A stretch of 64,000 bases of DNA from Flavobacteriales bacterium (GCA_002692065.1 NZJX01000011.1:115555-179554); one strand, 5' to 3'. Positions 38,448 to 45,551 are shown, numbered from the stretch's first letter. Made by a program: numbers and translations. Notes: generated by a model from the letters alone, not told the origin.

Positions 38448-39179
38448 ATGAAAAAAAGCATATTAATTTTACTTTCCTTTTTTAGCTTAACCGTATTTTC
38501 TCAAACAACAGAACTTAGTAGTTATCAGAAAAAAACAATGAACACTGAGAGATTTGCGCGTGCAGTTAACACTGGTGCAAACCACACGTTATTAATTTTA
38601 GGTTCAGCCTGGAAAACATCTCCTGAGTTAGGAGACGAAATAGCTGTTTATGATTCCAATGGAAATATGGTTGGTTCTGTAGCCTGGGTCCCAGAACAAG
38701 AGGGTCATGCAGGAATTGCAATATGGGGAGATGACGAAACAACGCCTGAGAAGGAAGGAATGGTTAAAGGCGAAAAGTTTACAATTTTACTATTTGATAA
38801 GTCAGAAGATGAAATGTTTGAAGTCAAAATTGAAGAGTTTAAAACAGGAGAAGATATTTACGTGAAAGATGGCGTAACTGTTGTAGGGCAAGCTTCTATT
38901 ATTAAATCTCTCTCGCAAAAATTAGAATTGTTTCAAAACGCACCAAACCCTGTTCAAGAAAACACATCTATAAGCTTCTATATGCCTACTAAAGGAAAGG
39001 TGAAACTTTATTTGTCTAACTCATTAGGTCAAGAAGTTATGGTTCTTGCTGACACCACTTATGATAAGGGAACTCACAGTGTTCAAATGAGTGCCAAGTC
39101 TCTCTCAGCAGGAATTTATTTTTATAAAATTGAGGCAAATAATGTTACTCTAACAAAACAAATGACTCTTGTCAAATAA
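38448..39179 (+). CDS. Small secreted protein of unknown function with a canonical T9SS type-A C-terminal sorting domain
   Basis: Signal peptide MKKSILILLSFFSLTVFSQ. The last ~80 aa (NAPNPVQENTSISFYMP...LSAGIYFYKIEANNVTLTKQMTLVK) match the Por_Secre_tail pattern. I do not recognise the N-terminal ~150 aa. Confidence 0.6.
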   Translation: MKKSILILLSFFSLTVFSQTTELSSYQKKTMNTERFARAVNTGANHTLLILGSAWKTSPELGDEIAVYDSNGNMVGSVAWVPEQEGHAGIAIWGDDETTPEKEGMVKGEKFTILLFDKSEDEMFEVKIEEFKTGEDIYVKDGVTVVGQASIIKSLSQKLELFQNAPNPVQENTSISFYMPTKGKVKLYLSNSLGQEVMVLADTTYDKGTHSVQMSAKSLSAGIYFYKIEANNVTLTKQMTLVK

Positions 39180-39873
39180 ATTTATAAAACTGGCCGCTTC
39201 TTGCGGCTTTTTTTTTAATAAATACCTTATAAATCTTCTATTTATTTTTTTTACATGTAATTTATTCTCACAAGAAAATATTAAATTTCAAGCAACATTT
39301 AATAGCGAAGCCCTTAAATTAAATAAAAATTACAATTTAAATAAATATCATTTTAACATAAAGAAACTTAAGTTTTATGTTTCAAATATAAGTTATTATA
39401 ACAGAAAAAAACACCAAATATTCAGAGATGAAAAAGTTTATTTAGTTGATTTTAATAATCCTAAATCTTTAAAAATCAAGTCTCTAATAAACAAAAAGGT
39501 TCATTTACATTCTTTTGATTTAGGATTAGACAGTATTATAAATGTCAGCGGCTCGATGGGTGGCGCCTTAGACCCAATAGAGGGGATGTATTGGGCTTGG
39601 CAAAGTGGATATATTAATTTTAAGGTGGAGTGGGAAAGTAATATGTGCACAAATGATAATAATCAATTTATTTTTCATTTGGGGGGGTACAAAAAGCCGT
39701 ATTATAATAAAAGAACAGTTTTAGTCAAAAAAAGACACATAAATAAGTTAACATTTAACCTTAATAAGTTCCTTAAAAAAATAAGTTGTGGTAGACAAAC
39801 AATTATGAGTCCAAGCTTAAGAGGGGAAAATATTTCAAATTTAATTGTTAAATCATTTGAATTTAAAAAATGA
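39169..39873 (+). CDS. MbnP-like periplasmic/secreted protein (putative copper-binding partner of the downstream di-haem enzyme)
   Basis: Hydrophobic N-terminus. GALDPIEGMYWAWQSGYINFKVEW resembles the conserved M-W-W-x-GY-F-K-E core I recall for the MbnP family. ATGA-coupled to an MbnH/MauG-like di-haem peroxidase. The only canonical start is the TTG at 39169. Confidence 0.45.
   Translation: MSNKFIKLAASCGFFFNKYLINLLFIFFTCNLFSQENIKFQATFNSEALKLNKNYNLNKYHFNIKKLKFYVSNISYYNRKKHQIFRDEKVYLVDFNNPKSLKIKSLINKKVHLHSFDLGLDSIINVSGSMGGALDPIEGMYWAWQSGYINFKVEWESNMCTNDNNQFIFHLGGYKKPYYNKRTVLVKKRHINKLTFNLNKFLKKISCGRQTIMSPSLRGENISNLIVKSFEFKK
39192..39216 (+). terminator. Rho-independent terminator (GCCGC-TTCTT-GCGGC followed by T9)
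   Basis: A GC-rich 5-6 bp stem plus a 9-T run, 13 nt after the stop of the 38448 CDS. It stands out in this AT-rich DNA. Confidence 0.7.
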
Positions 39874-40853
39874 AAGTGTTGTTAAAATTAGGTTTATTTT
39901 ATGGAATAATTTATTTATTTATTGAGGAAAGCTATTTAAATTACCCAGAGTATTTTCCCAAAACTAAGTATGATTTTTCAAAAAATAATTTATCAAAAAC
40001 AAAAATTGAATTGGGAAGAATGTTGTTTTATGACCCTATATTATCAATAGATAGTACAATTTCGTGTGAAAGTTGCCATAGTCCATATAATGCTTTTTCA
40101 CACACGGATCATAGATTAAGCCACGGTATAAACGATAAAATTGGAAAAAGAAATGCTCCCCCATTATTTAATTTAGCCTGGAAATCTTCTTTCATGAGAG
40201 ACGGAGCCGTTAATCATTTAGATATGCAGTCATTAGTTCCGATAACTGATAGTTTAGAAATGGGAAACTCTTTAGGCAATCTACTTTATAAATTAAAAAA
40301 AAACCAAAAATATATTAATATGTTTTATGAAGCATTTGGCGACTCCACAATTAATTTAGATAGGGTATTAAAATCAATTTCACAGTTTGAGTTAACTTTA
40401 ATTTCGAAAAACTCAAAATATGACAGATTTAGACTAGGAGAAGATCACTTTTCAGATCAGGAAACCAGAGGGTATGAATTATTCAAAAAAAATTGTAGTA
40501 ATTGCCATGAGGAGCCAATGTTTACAAATTATAAGTTTGAAAATAATTCTTTGGAGATTAATCAAGTTTTATTAGACTCAGGAAGGTTTAGTATTACTAA
40601 AAACAGTAACGATTTTATGTCTTTTGAAGTTCCTTCACTTAGGAATTTATCTTATACTTACCCATATATGCACGACGGCAGGTTTTCAAATTTATTTGAA
40701 GTCTTGAAACATTATTCAGGGCCAAAATTTAATTATGTAAGTTTAACTGAAAAAGAAATAATAGACATAATATCTTTTTTATTAACTTTAAATGATAAGG
40801 AGTTTATATTAAACCCTGAAAATAAATTTCCTGTAAATAAACTTTTAAAATAA
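39870..40853 (+). CDS. Di-haem cytochrome c peroxidase family enzyme (MbnH/MauG-like)
   Basis: Two CxxCH haem motifs (SCESCHSP and CSNCHEEP). LGRMLFYDPILS and PSLRNLSYTYPYMHDG are typical of the CCP/MauG family. Confidence 0.8.
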   Translation: MKVLLKLGLFYGIIYLFIEESYLNYPEYFPKTKYDFSKNNLSKTKIELGRMLFYDPILSIDSTISCESCHSPYNAFSHTDHRLSHGINDKIGKRNAPPLFNLAWKSSFMRDGAVNHLDMQSLVPITDSLEMGNSLGNLLYKLKKNQKYINMFYEAFGDSTINLDRVLKSISQFELTLISKNSKYDRFRLGEDHFSDQETRGYELFKKNCSNCHEEPMFTNYKFENNSLEINQVLLDSGRFSITKNSNDFMSFEVPSLRNLSYTYPYMHDGRFSNLFEVLKHYSGPKFNYVSLTEKEIIDIISFLLTLNDKEFILNPENKFPVNKLLK

Positions 40854-42199
40854 TGAAAAAAATAACCTACATACTCTTACTAAACATCATAAATTGTTTT
40901 TCTCAACCAGAAATCTATTCTTGGCTTCAAAATACAGAAACAACCGGAAATTATTATATTGCCGGTTCTCCAGTATTAGTTCCAAATAATATTTTGGTTA
41001 ATTGTCAAAAGGTTCAGTTTTCCAATGATTATGTTTATGTGACAGCAACAGGGGTTCCTTCTTACCCAACAGGTCCTTTTCTTGACGGCAACCCGTCAAA
41101 CGCACAAAACCAAGCAGTGATTTTTAAAATTACTAGAAACCCACAGCAAAACTTGGATGATTTAACCTACACTACACCAGGAAATATAGGGGTTTTTATT
41201 AACGGAGTTGCGCTATTTGATTATAGAGATGGGGTTGCTTGGAACTCAAACACCAACCAACTGTGTGGCGGCCCTGGTAATCCACCATGTCCGGGTGGAT
41301 TTCTTGCAGAAATGGATTGGAATAGAGATGCAATTCTTGCAGAAATGGAAGGGTTTGATTGCGCAAAAGGACATCCAGCTATGGGAAACTATCATCACCA
41401 TCAAAATCCATCAGCGTTTAAACTAGATAGGTTTCTTGTTTCACATGTTTGTGATTTGTATGATTCAGAGGGGCTGTATGTAATCGATTCAACTGCTCAT
41501 TCCCCACTTTTGGGCTATGCTTTTGATGGTTTTCCTATTTATGGGGCATATGGATATCAAAATAATGACGGGTCTGGAGGTGTTGTTCGAATAGAATCAG
41601 GTTATAATTTAAGAAGTATAACAGAAAGAACTCACCATGCTGACGGAACAGATGTTGAGGATGGGCCAAGTATATCAGAATATTTTCTGGGGTATTTTAG
41701 AGAAGATTATGAATTTATAGACCAGGACGAAGATAAATATTTAGATGAGCATAATGGAAGACTCTGTGTAACGCCAGAGTATCCTGAAGGAACATATGCA
41801 TATTTTTGTACAGTAGATGAAAATTGGAATTCTAAATATCCATATGCTGTTGGGCCAACATTTTATGGCGAATATTCAAATAGTATGACAAATAATATTT
41901 TAGAACAAACAACCACCTATTATCAAACAAATTTAAATAATGAAAGTTTAACTGTGGGTTTTAACGCTTTCATCAACAAATCCTCAGAGTTAATAATTGT
42001 TCAATGCTTGGGATTGGTTAAAGAAAATACAAAGGTTAATGTTATAGATTTAAATGGAAAAATTTTAAAAAGCACACAGATTTTTCCTGGACAAACATTA
42101 GCAAGTATAGATTCACGAGCACTTTACAATGGATTATATATCATAGAAATAATTCAAAATAATAAAAGGCTTATCAAAAAATTAGCGATAAGTAGGTAG
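40853..42199 (+). CDS. YHYH-family protein with a T9SS-like C-terminal domain
   Basis: Signal peptide. FDCAKGHPAMGNYHHHQNP (YHYH-type motif) and LDEHNGRLCVTPEYPEGTYAYF (second family motif). C-terminal VNVIDLNGKIL...LYNGLYIIEI...KKLAISR. The start overlaps the upstream stop (TAATG). Confidence 0.65.
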   Translation: MKKITYILLLNIINCFSQPEIYSWLQNTETTGNYYIAGSPVLVPNNILVNCQKVQFSNDYVYVTATGVPSYPTGPFLDGNPSNAQNQAVIFKITRNPQQNLDDLTYTTPGNIGVFINGVALFDYRDGVAWNSNTNQLCGGPGNPPCPGGFLAEMDWNRDAILAEMEGFDCAKGHPAMGNYHHHQNPSAFKLDRFLVSHVCDLYDSEGLYVIDSTAHSPLLGYAFDGFPIYGAYGYQNNDGSGGVVRIESGYNLRSITERTHHADGTDVEDGPSISEYFLGYFREDYEFIDQDEDKYLDEHNGRLCVTPEYPEGTYAYFCTVDENWNSKYPYAVGPTFYGEYSNSMTNNILEQTTTYYQTNLNNESLTVGFNAFINKSSELIIVQCLGLVKENTKVNVIDLNGKILKSTQIFPGQTLASIDSRALYNGLYIIEIIQNNKRLIKKLAISR

Positions 42200-42206
42200 C
42201 CTACTT
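42190..42206. terminator. Short hairpin AAGTAGG-TAG-CCTACTT spanning the stops of two convergent genes
   Basis: 7-bp stem with a 3-nt loop, T-rich on the plus side. A possible weak bidirectional terminator. Confidence 0.3.
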
Positions 42207-43490
42207 TATTTTCTTTTTTGATGAACCATCATTATAAATAATAAAATGGATACCCCTATAATCTTTTATATTTAAAATTTCTTTTCCCAACACATCAATT
42301 ATTTTGTTAATAGAAAGATTTTTCTGATGGGTTTCGTTTAAGTTTAAATAGTAGCTATTGTTAGAGAGTTCTATAATTTCATTTGGCGGCTGGCTTGGCC
42401 AGCTATATCCACTTGTTGCAAGATATATTCTTCCATCCGGACTTACGCAAATATCACGCAATCTTCCCCACATATTATTAAAATATTCAGTTTGATTAAT
42501 AACACTTAGCCCGTCATCAGAGAAGTCAAACTTAACAAGCATTTTATTTTTTAACACAGTCATAAGTAGAGTATTTTGAAACTCAGGAATAGAAGGATGA
42601 TCATACCAAATAATATCAGAAGGAGCAATTGTTGGAGTCCAATTTACAAGGGGTTCTACTACATCATTTGCATTACAAAAGTTTGTTTCGTTGGGCGCAT
42701 CACAGAAGCCATGTACACTTGGCCACCCATAATTTCTGTTAGGCATAAGAATATTTAATTCATCATCATTTTGAGGCCCATGTTCAGAGCTATATACTAT
42801 TCCATTTGGAGCAAGCTCTAAACCTTGAGCATTTCTATGACCCCAAGAATAAACATAACTTGATGTGTCAGGATTATCCGAAGGGATACCTCCAAAATTG
42901 TCCTCTGAAACATCAACTCTTAAAATTTTTCCAGTAAGTTCAGATAAATTTTGAGATGAAGATTGATCTTGGGCATCGCCAGTTGAGATTAAAATGGTGT
43001 TGTCATCAAGAGCAAGAATCCTACACCCAACATGAGTGGTCCACCCATTAATGTTGTCAATAAGAATCTCTTCATTTTTGAGCTTGTCAAGAGTTTCATC
43101 GTAATTATATGAAACAAGGCGTTCTTTGATTTGGCCAGAACTAGTTGTGTATGTGTATACTAAAAATAGAATCTTATTGGAAGTAAAGCTTGGATGAAAT
43201 TCAAACCCAAGTAATCCTGCTTCACTATTTGTATAAGATGAGTAGGTTAAATCTTGAATGTCAAGAATAACTTTTTTTTCACCAGATTCAACATTTACTC
43301 TACTAACAATTCCAGGCCTTTCAGTCATCCAAATATATCCATCTGGGCCCCATTTAATCTCCCATGGAATGCTAAGGTTGTTAATTACCTCTCTGACATT
43401 TAGGGTCGTATTGCCGACATTAACAGTTTGAGAAACAACATAAAGATTCATTGAGAAAAAGCATAAAAATAATCTGAATGGAATTTGCAT
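42201..43490 (-). CDS. PQQ-dependent (soluble glucose/sorbosone dehydrogenase-type) beta-propeller dehydrogenase with a T9SS-like tail
   Basis: GLLGFEFHPSF, GKILRV...GIPSDNP, WGHRNAQGL...EHGPQNDDELNIL..NYGWP. Signal peptide. Short C-terminal IIDVLGKEIL...IIYNDG motif. Confidence 0.8.
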   Translation of the reverse strand: MQIPFRLFLCFFSMNLYVVSQTVNVGNTTLNVREVINNLSIPWEIKWGPDGYIWMTERPGIVSRVNVESGEKKVILDIQDLTYSSYTNSEAGLLGFEFHPSFTSNKILFLVYTYTTSSGQIKERLVSYNYDETLDKLKNEEILIDNINGWTTHVGCRILALDDNTILISTGDAQDQSSSQNLSELTGKILRVDVSEDNFGGIPSDNPDTSSYVYSWGHRNAQGLELAPNGIVYSSEHGPQNDDELNILMPNRNYGWPSVHGFCDAPNETNFCNANDVVEPLVNWTPTIAPSDIIWYDHPSIPEFQNTLLMTVLKNKMLVKFDFSDDGLSVINQTEYFNNMWGRLRDICVSPDGRIYLATSGYSWPSQPPNEIIELSNNSYYLNLNETHQKNLSINKIIDVLGKEILNIKDYRGIHFIIYNDGSSKKKIK

Positions 43491-43496
43491 AATTTT

Positions 43497-45551
43497 TTAT
43501 TTTGTGATTTTAATTTTTTTTGTTTTAGTTTCAATAATGTAAGTGCCTGATTCTAAATTCTCATAGCTAGAATAAACCTTTCTCCCTAATAAATCATATA
43601 TATTTAAAATTTGATTGCCATCGAAGGTTAACTCATCAATTGATACTGAACAATTGTCTGGAGAGACAATCACTTCAAGAGACTCCTCAGATTCGCATGA
43701 GGAAACAACCCAATCAACTTTCCAATTATAGAAAAAATAATAAAATCCATTTCCATACTCACTATCGTTAATGGAAATTATATTTTCAATAACATAAGGA
43801 TAATTGAAAGAGCTACCCCAACCCTCAGATCTACTTCTTTTAAGCATTGGGTTGGCAAAACCAAAATTTACTAGATTAGAATCGGTATTTGTGCCTATTT
43901 TATAGTTTTGTCCCTCATCAATATTCCAGTTAAGATTTAATGTGGCATCAGAGTTAATAAATACAGTTGTATCATGAATTATTTGGTTACTTTCATTTTT
44001 TAATTCAATGGTTCTGTTTCCTGAATACAAATTGTCAGTAAACACATCAATTGACTTTAGTATAAAGTCATCATTTGCATCAAATGTCATAAATCCATTA
44101 TACTCTTCACCGCTATATTCGGAATTTCCAGAATGATACTGTTCCCCAACATTGTCAGTTGAGAAGTTTTCAACAATTTGTTTGGCAAAAAGGTGTAATT
44201 CTTCTTCTAAAGATGGAACATAAAAGGGGGTTCCAACAAAAATTAATTCATCGTTTTCATTGTACCAAGTTACATTTTCTTCATTAAGCTCAATATAAAA
44301 AGGCTCACCAAGGCAAGCACTAGTTGGGTCGTAAAAAGAACTTAGAGTAGGAGGATCAGCATAAACTTTAAAAACGTTTGTTGGGGTAGACTCAACTATT
44401 TGATCACAGTTAGGATTTTCTACAGTAACACTGTAACTACCCTGTTCTGAAACACTAATACTTTGTGTTGTTTCGCCATTACTCCACAAATAACTATTAC
44501 CATAATTTGCAGTTAATTCGACACTTTCTCCTTCGCAAATTTCAATACTTCCTTGAATATCAATAGATGAAGTTCCATTGTTTTGTAGTGCTAAATTAAA
44601 CGGAATTGCCGAGTAATTATTATCAGAGTTTTCTTCCAAAAAATAATTGTTAGGATCAGCTATTCCTACAATCCAATACTCGCCATTACATATATTAGGG
44701 TCCAAATTAATCCACTGCTCTTCAAGCCATTCACCATAAAGATCGAGCCAACCTGAAGATATTCCTTGAACAACTTCTGAGCAACCGTAATTTCCCCCCC
44801 CTAGACCAAAGTTCGGAAAATCAACATTGTATAAAACTTCACCCTGTTGATATTGTGTGTTGTCGTCGCGGCAATGCCCTGTGTAATCGTCATTTGAGTA
44901 GGCGTCAATCGTATTATCAGGGCTACAGGTACCATAATCCATTAAGCAAAAACCAAGTTTTGCGCCATCAGACACAATTGGCCAGTTTCTTGGGTCTGGT
45001 TCATTTTCGTCCTTTATTCTTAGGGTAAAAACACCCCAATCATTTGTATGGTTATGCCCATGTGTAGGATGGTATGTCATACTCCCTGCTTGACGGTCGT
45101 AATGACTCATAGAGCCATCGCTATTTCTATGATAAATTCTTTGCCAAAGAATTTGTTCAGGATGACTTCCATCTGAACAGTAAAACTCTTCTTCAGAGGA
45201 GGGATCATATATTGATATTGTGTCGGTTATTCCGTCTTGATAACTACATATAAAAGTTCTGTATCCATCTGGTCCTGCACCTCTTACAGTAAGTGGTCCA
45301 TGACCAACATTAGGAGTGGAAACGCTGATACGTAATCGTCCGTTATTTTCCCCCTCTCCTGTTTGAGAATATTCAGTTGGCCCATTAGTTACGTTTTCAA
45401 GTCCAAACCAGGACACTTGAATATCAGGTAAAAGATCACAGTCGGTATCATTTGGATTTGCACATTGACAATCAGTAGCATCGTAGATAGTACATTGAGC
45501 AATTAAGTTAAAATTAAATATAAAAAGAAAGATGGATGTAATTTTGTACAT
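43497..45551 (-). CDS. Lysyl oxidase-like copper amine oxidase with Ig-like modules and a T9SS-like C-terminal domain
   Basis: Aligns by eye to the animal LOX catalytic domain. YHPTHGHNH matches WHSCHQHYH (Cu His triad; His164/166/168 at nt 45048-45062). GAKLGFCLMDYGTC matches GHKASFCLEDTSC (LTQ Lys198). QGISSGWLDLYGEWLEEQWINL matches [22 protein letters not shown] (LTQ Tyr272). Confidence 0.75.
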   Translation of the reverse strand: MYKITSIFLFIFNFNLIAQCTIYDATDCQCANPNDTDCDLLPDIQVSWFGLENVTNGPTEYSQTGEGENNGRLRISVSTPNVGHGPLTVRGAGPDGYRTFICSYQDGITDTISIYDPSSEEEFYCSDGSHPEQILWQRIYHRNSDGSMSHYDRQAGSMTYHPTHGHNHTNDWGVFTLRIKDENEPDPRNWPIVSDGAKLGFCLMDYGTCSPDNTIDAYSNDDYTGHCRDDNTQYQQGEVLYNVDFPNFGLGGGNYGCSEVVQGISSGWLDLYGEWLEEQWINLDPNICNGEYWIVGIADPNNYFLEENSDNNYSAIPFNLALQNNGTSSIDIQGSIEICEGESVELTANYGNSYLWSNGETTQSISVSEQGSYSVTVENPNCDQIVESTPTNVFKVYADPPTLSSFYDPTSACLGEPFYIELNEENVTWYNENDELIFVGTPFYVPSLEEELHLFAKQIVENFSTDNVGEQYHSGNSEYSGEEYNGFMTFDANDDFILKSIDVFTDNLYSGNRTIELKNESNQIIHDTTVFINSDATLNLNWNIDEGQNYKIGTNTDSNLVNFGFANPMLKRSRSEGWGSSFNYPYVIENIISINDSEYGNGFYYFFYNWKVDWVVSSCESEESLEVIVSPDNCSVSIDELTFDGNQILNIYDLLGRKVYSSYENLESGTYIIETKTKKIKITK

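Follow-up and report, generated by a model that had tools for sequence, protein, structure and literature searches.

A recurrent MbnP–MbnH–YHYH gene triad in Bacteroidota and its possible role in copper handling at the cell envelope

Introduction

Three adjacent genes on a 64,000-nucleotide stretch of DNA from a Flavobacteriales bacterium (GCA_002692065.1 NZJX01000011.1:115555-179554; hereafter the window, with positions counted from its first letter) encode an MbnP-like protein, an MbnH-like di-haem cytochrome c enzyme and a YHYH-family protein with a C-terminal sorting domain of the type IX secretion system (T9SS). The MbnP–MbnH–YHYH trio is found again in well over a hundred other loci of Bacteroidota. 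Pairs of MbnP and MbnH are conserved far beyond the producers of methanobactin (PMC3621798). In Methylosinus trichosporium, a tryptophan of the WxW motif in MbnP is converted to kynurenine-174, which makes up the copper site with a His, a Met and water; both kynurenine formation and copper binding depend on MbnH (PMC11951088). The pair itself is already known, and the third gene, YHYH, appears to be the new element of this variant. We propose, with a probability of roughly 0.5, that the triad is a Bacteroidota envelope module in which copper-loaded MbnP metallates the YHYH protein before its export by the T9SS.

The triad and its recurrence

The genome has a GC content of 28%, and the window derives from an open-ocean Tara sample. 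The three open reading frames (ORFs) of the triad are as follows.

39169..39873, + strand: ORF1, MbnP-family protein (234 amino acids as annotated, start uncertain)
39870..40853, + strand: ORF2, MauG/MbnH-type di-haem cytochrome c enzyme (327 amino acids)
40853..42199, + strand: ORF3, YHYH-domain protein with C-terminal T9SS sorting domain (448 amino acids)

A previous reading of this DNA, made from the sequence only, described the ORFs as co-directional and chained by start/stop overlaps, and both overlaps can be read directly from the sequence: ATGA at 39870-39873 joins ORF1 to ORF2, and TAATG at 40851-40855 joins ORF2 to ORF3. The same sequence-only reading predicted that YHYH genes would be enriched beside mbnPH-like pairs in other genomes, and two surveys approaching the triad from opposite ends bear this out.

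The survey from the MbnP side scanned species-representative genomes with an MbnP-like motif and found at least 583 related loci, of which 80 were kept for counts. These span Flavobacteriales, Saprospiraceae, Chitinophagales, Sphingobacteriales, Crocinitomicaceae and one Ignavibacteriota metagenome-assembled genome. YHYH lies directly after MbnH in 48 of the 80, directly before MbnP in 5 and within approximately 2.5 kb in 6; it is absent from 10 and the remaining 11 are uninformative, giving linkage in 59 of 69 informative loci. At least two of the 10 loci scored as lacking YHYH (L066 and L068) end just past a multicopper oxidase gene, which elsewhere intervenes between MbnH and YHYH. The survey from the YHYH side used the window protein as query against metagenome contigs, again with 80 loci. 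MbnP and MbnH are found upstream in 46, and in a further 12 MbnH is adjacent and the contig is cut before MbnP. The genes occur in another order in 3 loci and nearby in 3, while 8 have no partner and 8 are uninformative; linkage is therefore seen in 64 of 72 informative loci. The genes on either side of the triad are not the same in the window, Marifrigoribacter and Saprospiraceae, and chance adjacency of the triad genes is ruled out by the synteny counts. Carriers among cultured Flavobacterium include F. swingsii, F. psychrotolerans and F. cyanobacteriorum.

The ratio of non-synonymous to synonymous substitution rates (dN/dS) was calculated against the close relative L091, whose triad proteins are 85-95% identical to those of the window. 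Values of 0.22 for ORF1, 0.10 for ORF2 and 0.13 for ORF3 show that all three triad genes are under purifying selection.

Spacing at the gene junctions

Overlap between neighbouring genes was examined across related loci, with start sites estimated from profile coordinates. An overlap is present at the MbnP–MbnH junction in 93 of 109 loci (in the form ATGA in 65), and this conserved overlap fits a tightly coupled pair. The MbnH–YHYH junction is of a different kind: a gap of 21-150 nt separates the two genes in 80 of 95 loci and overlap is rare. The TAATG overlap of the window is a local compaction of its streamlined lineage. Overlaps are ordinary for this genome: on the scaffold, 4 of 13 co-directional neighbour pairs overlap and most of the others are separated by fewer than 16 nt.

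The sequence-only reading had taken the chained overlaps as a mark of stoichiometric partnership that included YHYH, and this part of it does not survive the gap found in most relatives. Translational coupling as proof of such a partnership is ruled out by the spacing survey together with the compactness of the genome. The MbnH–YHYH overlap is not conserved, and it is synteny that argues for YHYH as a partner. The position of YHYH also varies, since it may lie upstream of MbnP, or a multicopper oxidase and a redoxin may intervene between it and MbnH.

ORF1 is an MbnP-like protein

ORF1 matches the Pfam family PF20243 (MbnP) over residues 37-207 with 122.3 bits, against a cut-off of 27. An AlphaFold2 model built from 120 homologues has a mean predicted local distance difference test score (pLDDT) of 82.7, and the sole significant fold match of this model in the PDB is MbnP of M. 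trichosporium (7L6G; E 2e-6 to 4e-5, probability 1.00, template modelling score 0.50-0.55, identity 12%). The proposed membership of the MbnP family is thus upheld both by the hidden Markov model (HMM; PF20243, 122 bits) and by fold. ORF1 reaches only 45.4 bits with NCBIfam TIGR04052, the MbnP_like_WxW equivalog, for which the cut-off is 140, and it is best described as belonging to a distant MbnP subfamily, MbnP-like rather than an equivalog. Searches of PDB sequences with the single ORF1 sequence, or with profiles of 20 and of 120 homologues, reached neither 7L6G nor any other PDB sequence; for this reason, the equivalence of the copper ligands is argued from the invariant motif and the match in fold. 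Two candidate sites can be placed.

39586..39600, + strand: WxW motif M140-Y141-W142-A143-W144, with the candidate kynurenine Trp and a candidate Met ligand (from conservation)
39676..39678, + strand: His170 (in FHLGG), candidate copper ligand (invariant in 120 homologues)

Residues M140, Y141, W142, W144, H170 and G172-G173 are invariant in the 120 homologues, and Met213 is at least 90% conserved. The segment MYWAWQSGY, where the candidate modified Trp residues had been located from the sequence, lies at residues 140-148 and contains the invariant W142 and W144. We infer, rather than read from an alignment, that His170 corresponds to the ligand His of 7L6G. The signal peptide extends to about Q35 (39271). 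ORF1 contains four Cys residues, two in the signal region (12 and 30) and two beyond it (160 and 207), in agreement with the earlier count of two outside the signal region.

ORF2 is an MbnH-like di-haem enzyme

ORF2 matches CCP_MauG (PF03150) with 170 bits. Its best NCBIfam match is TIGR04039 (MbnH), at 188 bits and below the cut-off of 362.85, while MauG scores 156 bits. When a profile of 23 family members was compared with PDB sequences, the top match was MbnH 6E1C (183 bits), followed by canonical peroxidases and MauG. The CCP_MauG HMM and the top match to 6E1C together support the assignment of ORF2 as an MbnH-like di-haem enzyme. Its principal residues are listed below.

40065..40079, + strand: first haem-binding motif, C66-x-x-C69-H70 (invariant in 23 family members)
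40494..40508, + strand: second haem-binding motif, C209-x-x-C212-H213 (invariant in 23 family members)
40713..40715, + strand: Tyr282, predicted to be the distal ligand of the six-coordinate haem, as in MauG-type enzymes (invariant in the family)
40197..40199, + strand: Arg110 (FMRDG), at the inter-haem Trp position (family alignment)

In canonical di-haem peroxidases a conserved Met serves as a haem ligand, and a Tyr at this position (Tyr294 in MauG) is a hallmark of MauG-type enzymes. Tyr282 aligns with the Tyr of MbnH 6E1C (IYSEG) and, in the canonical peroxidases, with the conserved Met; judging from the end-points of the MauG match, it probably corresponds to MauG Tyr294.

The inter-haem position differs from that of most relatives. 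Arg110 aligns with the Trp of the Paracoccus cytochrome c peroxidase and the Trp of MbnH 6E1C, and Trp is found in more than 90% of the ORF2 family (FMWDG; FWDGR in peroxidases). Approximately 11 residues following Tyr282 are also deleted in the window protein. Both Arg110 and the deletion are retained in L091, where the MbnH-like protein is 95% identical. The enzyme is maintained, because Arg110 is kept in L091 and dN/dS is 0.10. ORF2 lacks the inter-haem Trp and falls under the TIGR04039 cut-off, and is best described as MbnH-like, not as an MbnH equivalog.

ORF3 is a YHYH protein with a T9SS tail

ORF3 matches Pfam PF14240 (YHYH) with 185 bits against a cut-off of 25, Por_Secre_tail (PF18962) with 29.5 bits against 27, and TIGR04183 with 27 bits against 23. 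All three scores lie above their cut-offs, in keeping with the initial description of ORF3 as a 448-residue YHYH-family protein with a T9SS tail. The AlphaFold2 model has a pLDDT of 92.6. Foldseek matches its C-terminal domain to the C-terminal domain of mirolase (8qb1) and to that of T9SS-bound NucA (8glk), and the tail is present in all 120 of the closest YHYH homologues. The core of the protein (approximately residues 20-360) gave no fold match in the PDB, the Foldseek hits being to the sorting domain only, and a sequence search of the PDB with ORF3 gave no match. The features of the protein are as follows.

41372..41401, + strand: His cluster of the YHYH motif, H174...Y180-H181-H182-H183 (GHPAMGNYHHHQNP), part of a predicted metal site (from conservation)
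41498..41527, + strand: H216-S-P ... D225, candidate metal-site residues (from conservation in 114 YHYH proteins)
41954..42196, + strand: T9SS type-A C-terminal sorting domain, approximately residues 368-448 (Pfam/TIGR04183 matches at residues 389-446)

Across 114 diverse YHYH proteins, conservation reaches at least 90% at H174, Y180, H181 and H183; H216, S217 and P218 are near-invariant and D225 is invariant. Y230, R259, E284-D285, D298, N301, R303, Y315 and Y317 are also invariant or nearly so. Measured against the same relatives, YHYH is approximately 60% identical, compared with approximately 37% for the MbnP-like protein.

The wider family is large and diverse. PF14240 comprises 2159 clusters at 50% identity, many of which are giant multidomain proteins, and is prevalent in marine diatoms (PMC11992049). 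YHYH domains are also found in cyanophage structural proteins and giant viruses, with Foldseek matches of ORF3 to cyanophage YHYH reaching E 1e-19. Iyer et al. (2021, PMC7824862) predicted that the YHYH domain in tail proteins of jumbo phages is a hydrolase that depends on a metal, probably Zn, and uses a His triad together with an Asp.

Metal-related and secreted neighbours of the triad in relatives

A set of three genes, encoding an extracytoplasmic function (ECF) sigma factor, a membrane protein of approximately 93 residues and a Metal_resist (PF13801) protein of approximately 160 residues, is found directly upstream of MbnP in 48-51 of the 103 loci that have enough upstream sequence for this count. 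One example is given here.

L172:151-1470, upstream of MbnP: sensor module (ECF sigma, 93-residue membrane protein, Metal_resist)

We take PF13801 to be the family that includes CnrX, which senses metal in the periplasm for the Cupriavidus CnrYXH ECF system; this system is induced by excess metal. The upstream module suggests metal-responsive control of the triad in these relatives. None of the ECF sigma, anti-sigma-like and CnrX-like genes of relatives turned up in a search of the whole 64-kb window.

A T9SS-tailed multicopper oxidase accompanies the triad in seven loci (L014, L046, L065, L066, L068, L089 and L173), either between MbnH and YHYH or directly after MbnH; three of these regions are listed below.

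L014:8836-11122, beside the triad: multicopper oxidase region
L046:8772-11141, beside the triad: multicopper oxidase region
L065:8879-11235, beside the triad: multicopper oxidase region

In five loci (L014, L046, L065, L089 and L173) the oxidase is joined by an AhpC/TSA redoxin. L173, whose YHYH proteins are more distant paralogues, has two T9SS-tailed multicopper oxidases and a redoxin. No recurrent TonB-dependent transporter was found among the neighbours of the triad.

Several further arrangements recur. Tandem T9SS-tailed YHYH genes lie beside a single MbnP/MbnH pair in L020, L077, L089, L166 and L172; the second YHYH of L172 is the representative of a 50%-identity cluster (P0242) and is 47% identical to the window YHYH. 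A protein combining CotH, a lamin-tail domain (LTD) and a T9SS tail adjoins the triad in L005 (1759-4026), L088 (8695-10953) and five more loci. T9SS-tailed sulfatases and an arylsulfotransferase are encoded downstream of YHYH in approximately 6-7 loci each.

A proposed mechanism and its alternatives

The location of the three proteins limits where they could interact. MbnP and MbnH have signal peptides and no sorting domain, so both are expected to stay in the periplasm. The YHYH protein would cross the periplasm after Sec export, before the T9SS delivers it to the cell surface or the medium; hence direct contact with MbnP or MbnH would be confined to the periplasm. By homology to the Methylosinus pair, ORF2 would oxidise a Trp of the WxW motif of periplasmic ORF1 to kynurenine, giving a copper site formed by His, Met and kynurenine. 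Gene linkage and topology suggest that copper-loaded MbnP then supplies metal in the periplasm to the YHYH protein, with its conserved His-rich candidate metal site, and in some relatives also to the T9SS-tailed multicopper oxidase. The YHYH protein would subsequently act outside the cell as a copper-dependent protein. Expression may follow the metal status of the envelope through a CnrH/CnrY/CnrX-like ECF system, as the loci of relatives (though not the window, which has no such module) indicate. The sequence-only reading had offered YHYH as a substrate, a copper recipient or a surface-anchored partner, and gene linkage makes each of these roles conceivable.

Several observations weigh against metallation of YHYH by copper-loaded MbnP. 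The sole published prediction for the YHYH domain is a Zn-dependent hydrolase (PMC7824862). A partner is not nearby in approximately 11-14% of informative loci. YHYH domains are also widespread in settings that lack MbnPH, cyanophage structural proteins and giant viruses among them, so the domain has no general need of MbnPH. A distant bacterial YHYH (39% identity) lies among GH95 and sulfatase genes without MbnPH (the one informative locus, two other contigs with distant YHYH being too short for a call); this locus rules out linkage to MbnPH as a property of the whole YHYH family, and the linkage is specific to the orthologue group of the window YHYH and its near paralogues. The Bacteroidota MbnP subfamily is very distant from characterised MbnP, as the score of ORF1 under the equivalog cut-off also indicates, and the equivalence of the ligands is assumed. 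Lastly, Arg110 and the 11-residue deletion may give ORF2 a chemistry different from that of characterised MbnH.

Alternative explanations differ in what they make of the YHYH protein. It could simply be co-regulated and independent, a Zn-dependent extracellular hydrolase or glycan-acting protein that shares a promoter or regulon with MbnPH. The hydrolase prediction of Iyer et al. (PMC7824862), the presence of YHYH folds in phage baseplate and structural proteins, and the GH95/sulfatase context of distant YHYH are all compatible with this, as is the recurrence beside the triad of other T9SS cargo (sulfatases, arylsulfotransferase and CotH-LTD). However, none of these other cargo genes, each found in 6-7 of approximately 160 loci, nears the frequency of YHYH, and linkage of 86-89% is kept across several Bacteroidota orders in which flanks and gene order vary (YHYH being upstream in 5); independence is for these reasons quite improbable. 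Another explanation, which we consider about equally hard to favour, makes the YHYH protein itself the substrate of the MauG-type enzyme. MbnH would oxidise one of its aromatic residues in the periplasm to generate a protein-derived cofactor or metal site, with MbnP as a second substrate or adaptor, in parallel to the action of MauG on methylamine dehydrogenase and of SACCP/CorB on MopE/CorA. Candidate residues are the conserved Trp156, Tyr180, Tyr230, Tyr315 and Tyr317. Linkage between the YHYH and MbnH genes is tight in both directions, several near-invariant aromatic residues lie beside the YHYH His cluster, and YHYH is conserved far better than MbnP. There is also the precedent of a surface copper protein paired with a MauG-like di-haem enzyme in MopE/SACCP and CorA/CorB (PMC3621798). 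Yet the same aromatic residues are conserved where no MbnH is nearby, in the YHYH proteins of phages, giant viruses and distant bacteria, which makes a structural or catalytic role in their own right more likely, and the invariant WxW of an ever-present MbnP already accounts for the known substrate of the enzyme.

A third explanation retains copper and reverses the purpose of the system, from supply to detoxification. A CnrX-like sensor would activate the ECF sigma factor at metal excess, kynurenine-containing MbnP would sequester periplasmic copper, the oxidase would oxidise Cu(I), and surface YHYH would bind or block metal. The module of ECF sigma factor, small membrane protein and Metal_resist protein does immediately precede the triad in roughly half of the related loci, its PF13801 component is presumably of the CnrX family of sensors induced by excess metal, and a multicopper oxidase combined with a periplasmic copper-binding protein resembles the logic of Pco/Cue. 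Nevertheless, an excess of copper is unlikely in an open-ocean sample and the window has no sensor module, while the analogous MopE/CorA genes of methanotrophs are repressed by copper, which fits acquisition (PMC3621798). Detoxification is thus unlikely, if a little less so than the preceding two explanations. We return, then, to an envelope module in which copper-loaded MbnP metallates YHYH before export. A bolder form of this proposal makes YHYH a new class of secreted copper-dependent protein, such as an oxidative enzyme acting on extracellular polymers, its site being metallated or oxidatively matured by kynurenine-MbnP/MbnH before T9SS export; we hold this form to be doubtful, on a par with detoxification.

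Comparison with known systems

The closest characterised system is MbnP/MbnH of Methylosinus trichosporium OB3b (7L6G, 6E1C; summarised in PMC11951088). The window shares with it an adjacent pair with an overlapping junction, the MbnP fold, the WxW motif, the Tyr at the distal ligand position, and MbnH as the top PDB match of the enzyme profile. It differs in having only 12% identity in the MbnP fold match, in the scores of both proteins below the TIGRFAM equivalog cut-offs, and in the Arg at the inter-haem Trp position. There are no methanobactin genes or TonB-dependent transporter nearby in the window, which has a YHYH-T9SS third gene instead.

The sensor module of relatives recalls CnrYXH of Cupriavidus metallidurans: ahead of the triad, about half of the related loci encode an ECF sigma factor, a membrane protein of approximately 93 residues and a PF13801 protein. 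Unlike CnrYXH, this module has a different gene order and would control MbnP/MbnH/YHYH rather than a resistance-nodulation-division efflux pump, and it is not in the window.

The MopE/SACCP system of Methylococcus capsulatus and the CorA/CorB system of Methylomicrobium album likewise place the gene of a MauG-like enzyme beside that of a surface or secreted protein tied to copper (PMC3621798), and YHYH as T9SS cargo would fill the role of the surface protein. No similarity of YHYH to MopE or CorA is detectable in sequence or fold, and the triad, unlike those systems, includes a separate periplasmic MbnP. YHYH domains (PF14240) in tail or baseplate proteins of jumbo phages and cyanophages share the domain, the conserved His cluster and the Asp; they are fused to tail or lectin domains and lack MbnPH, whereas the Bacteroidota group consists of stand-alone T9SS cargo linked to MbnPH. 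Our literature search, which did not extend to the neighbourhood analyses in the primary MbnH/MbnP papers, found no paper tying YHYH to MbnPH or copper.

Flanking genes and the start of ORF1 in the window

The region immediately surrounding the triad contains the following features.

38448..39179, + strand: 243-residue protein with T9SS sorting domain (Por_Secre_tail, 44 bits), a lineage-specific upstream neighbour
39192..39216, + strand: terminator-like GC-rich hairpin GGCCGC-TTCTT-GCGGCT at 39192-39208, followed by a run of nine T (scan match)
42190..42206, + strand: terminator-like hairpin at the end of ORF3, common to the convergent GSDH gene (scan match)

The upstream protein has an N-terminal region of approximately 160 residues without a Pfam match. 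Its gene is kept only in the close relative L091, against which dN/dS is 0.06 (highly conserved), and other genomes carry different genes at this position. There is an 11-nt overlap between its stop and the TTG annotated as the start of ORF1 (39169), and the gene may be co-transcribed with the triad. The hairpin at 39192..39216 falls within the first 16 codons of ORF1 as annotated; in L091 the stem is retained and a 3-nt indel leaves the reading frame of ORF1 intact. Homologues of ORF1 begin approximately 17 residues further in, at an ATG, and the window has no canonical in-frame start codon between 39169 and the signal peptide of ORF1. The ORF1 start is doubtful because the terminator-like hairpin lies inside the annotated 5′ end and no canonical start follows downstream.

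Two genes convergent with the triad lie beyond ORF3. A glucose/sorbosone dehydrogenase (GSDH) of the pyrroloquinoline quinone type is encoded at 42201-43490 (− strand), and a 684-residue protein with a weak Lysyl_oxidase match (24 bits) and an HGHNH motif at 43497-45551 (− strand). The latter is a second candidate copper enzyme. This arrangement of the GSDH and 684-residue protein genes beside the triad is common only to the close relative L091.

Significance

The triad offers a first functional lead for the widespread YHYH domain, towards the handling of copper or other metal at the cell envelope, and its link to T9SS-tailed multicopper oxidases and a CnrX-like sensor points in the same direction. 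It also bears on the role of MbnP/MbnH pairs outside methanobactin operons, tying that question to the large YHYH family. If the YHYH protein is indeed a secreted copper-dependent protein matured in the periplasm, MbnP and MbnH would serve T9SS cargo as metallochaperone and maturase. The triad also raises the little-studied question of how cargo of the type IX system obtains its metal cofactors.

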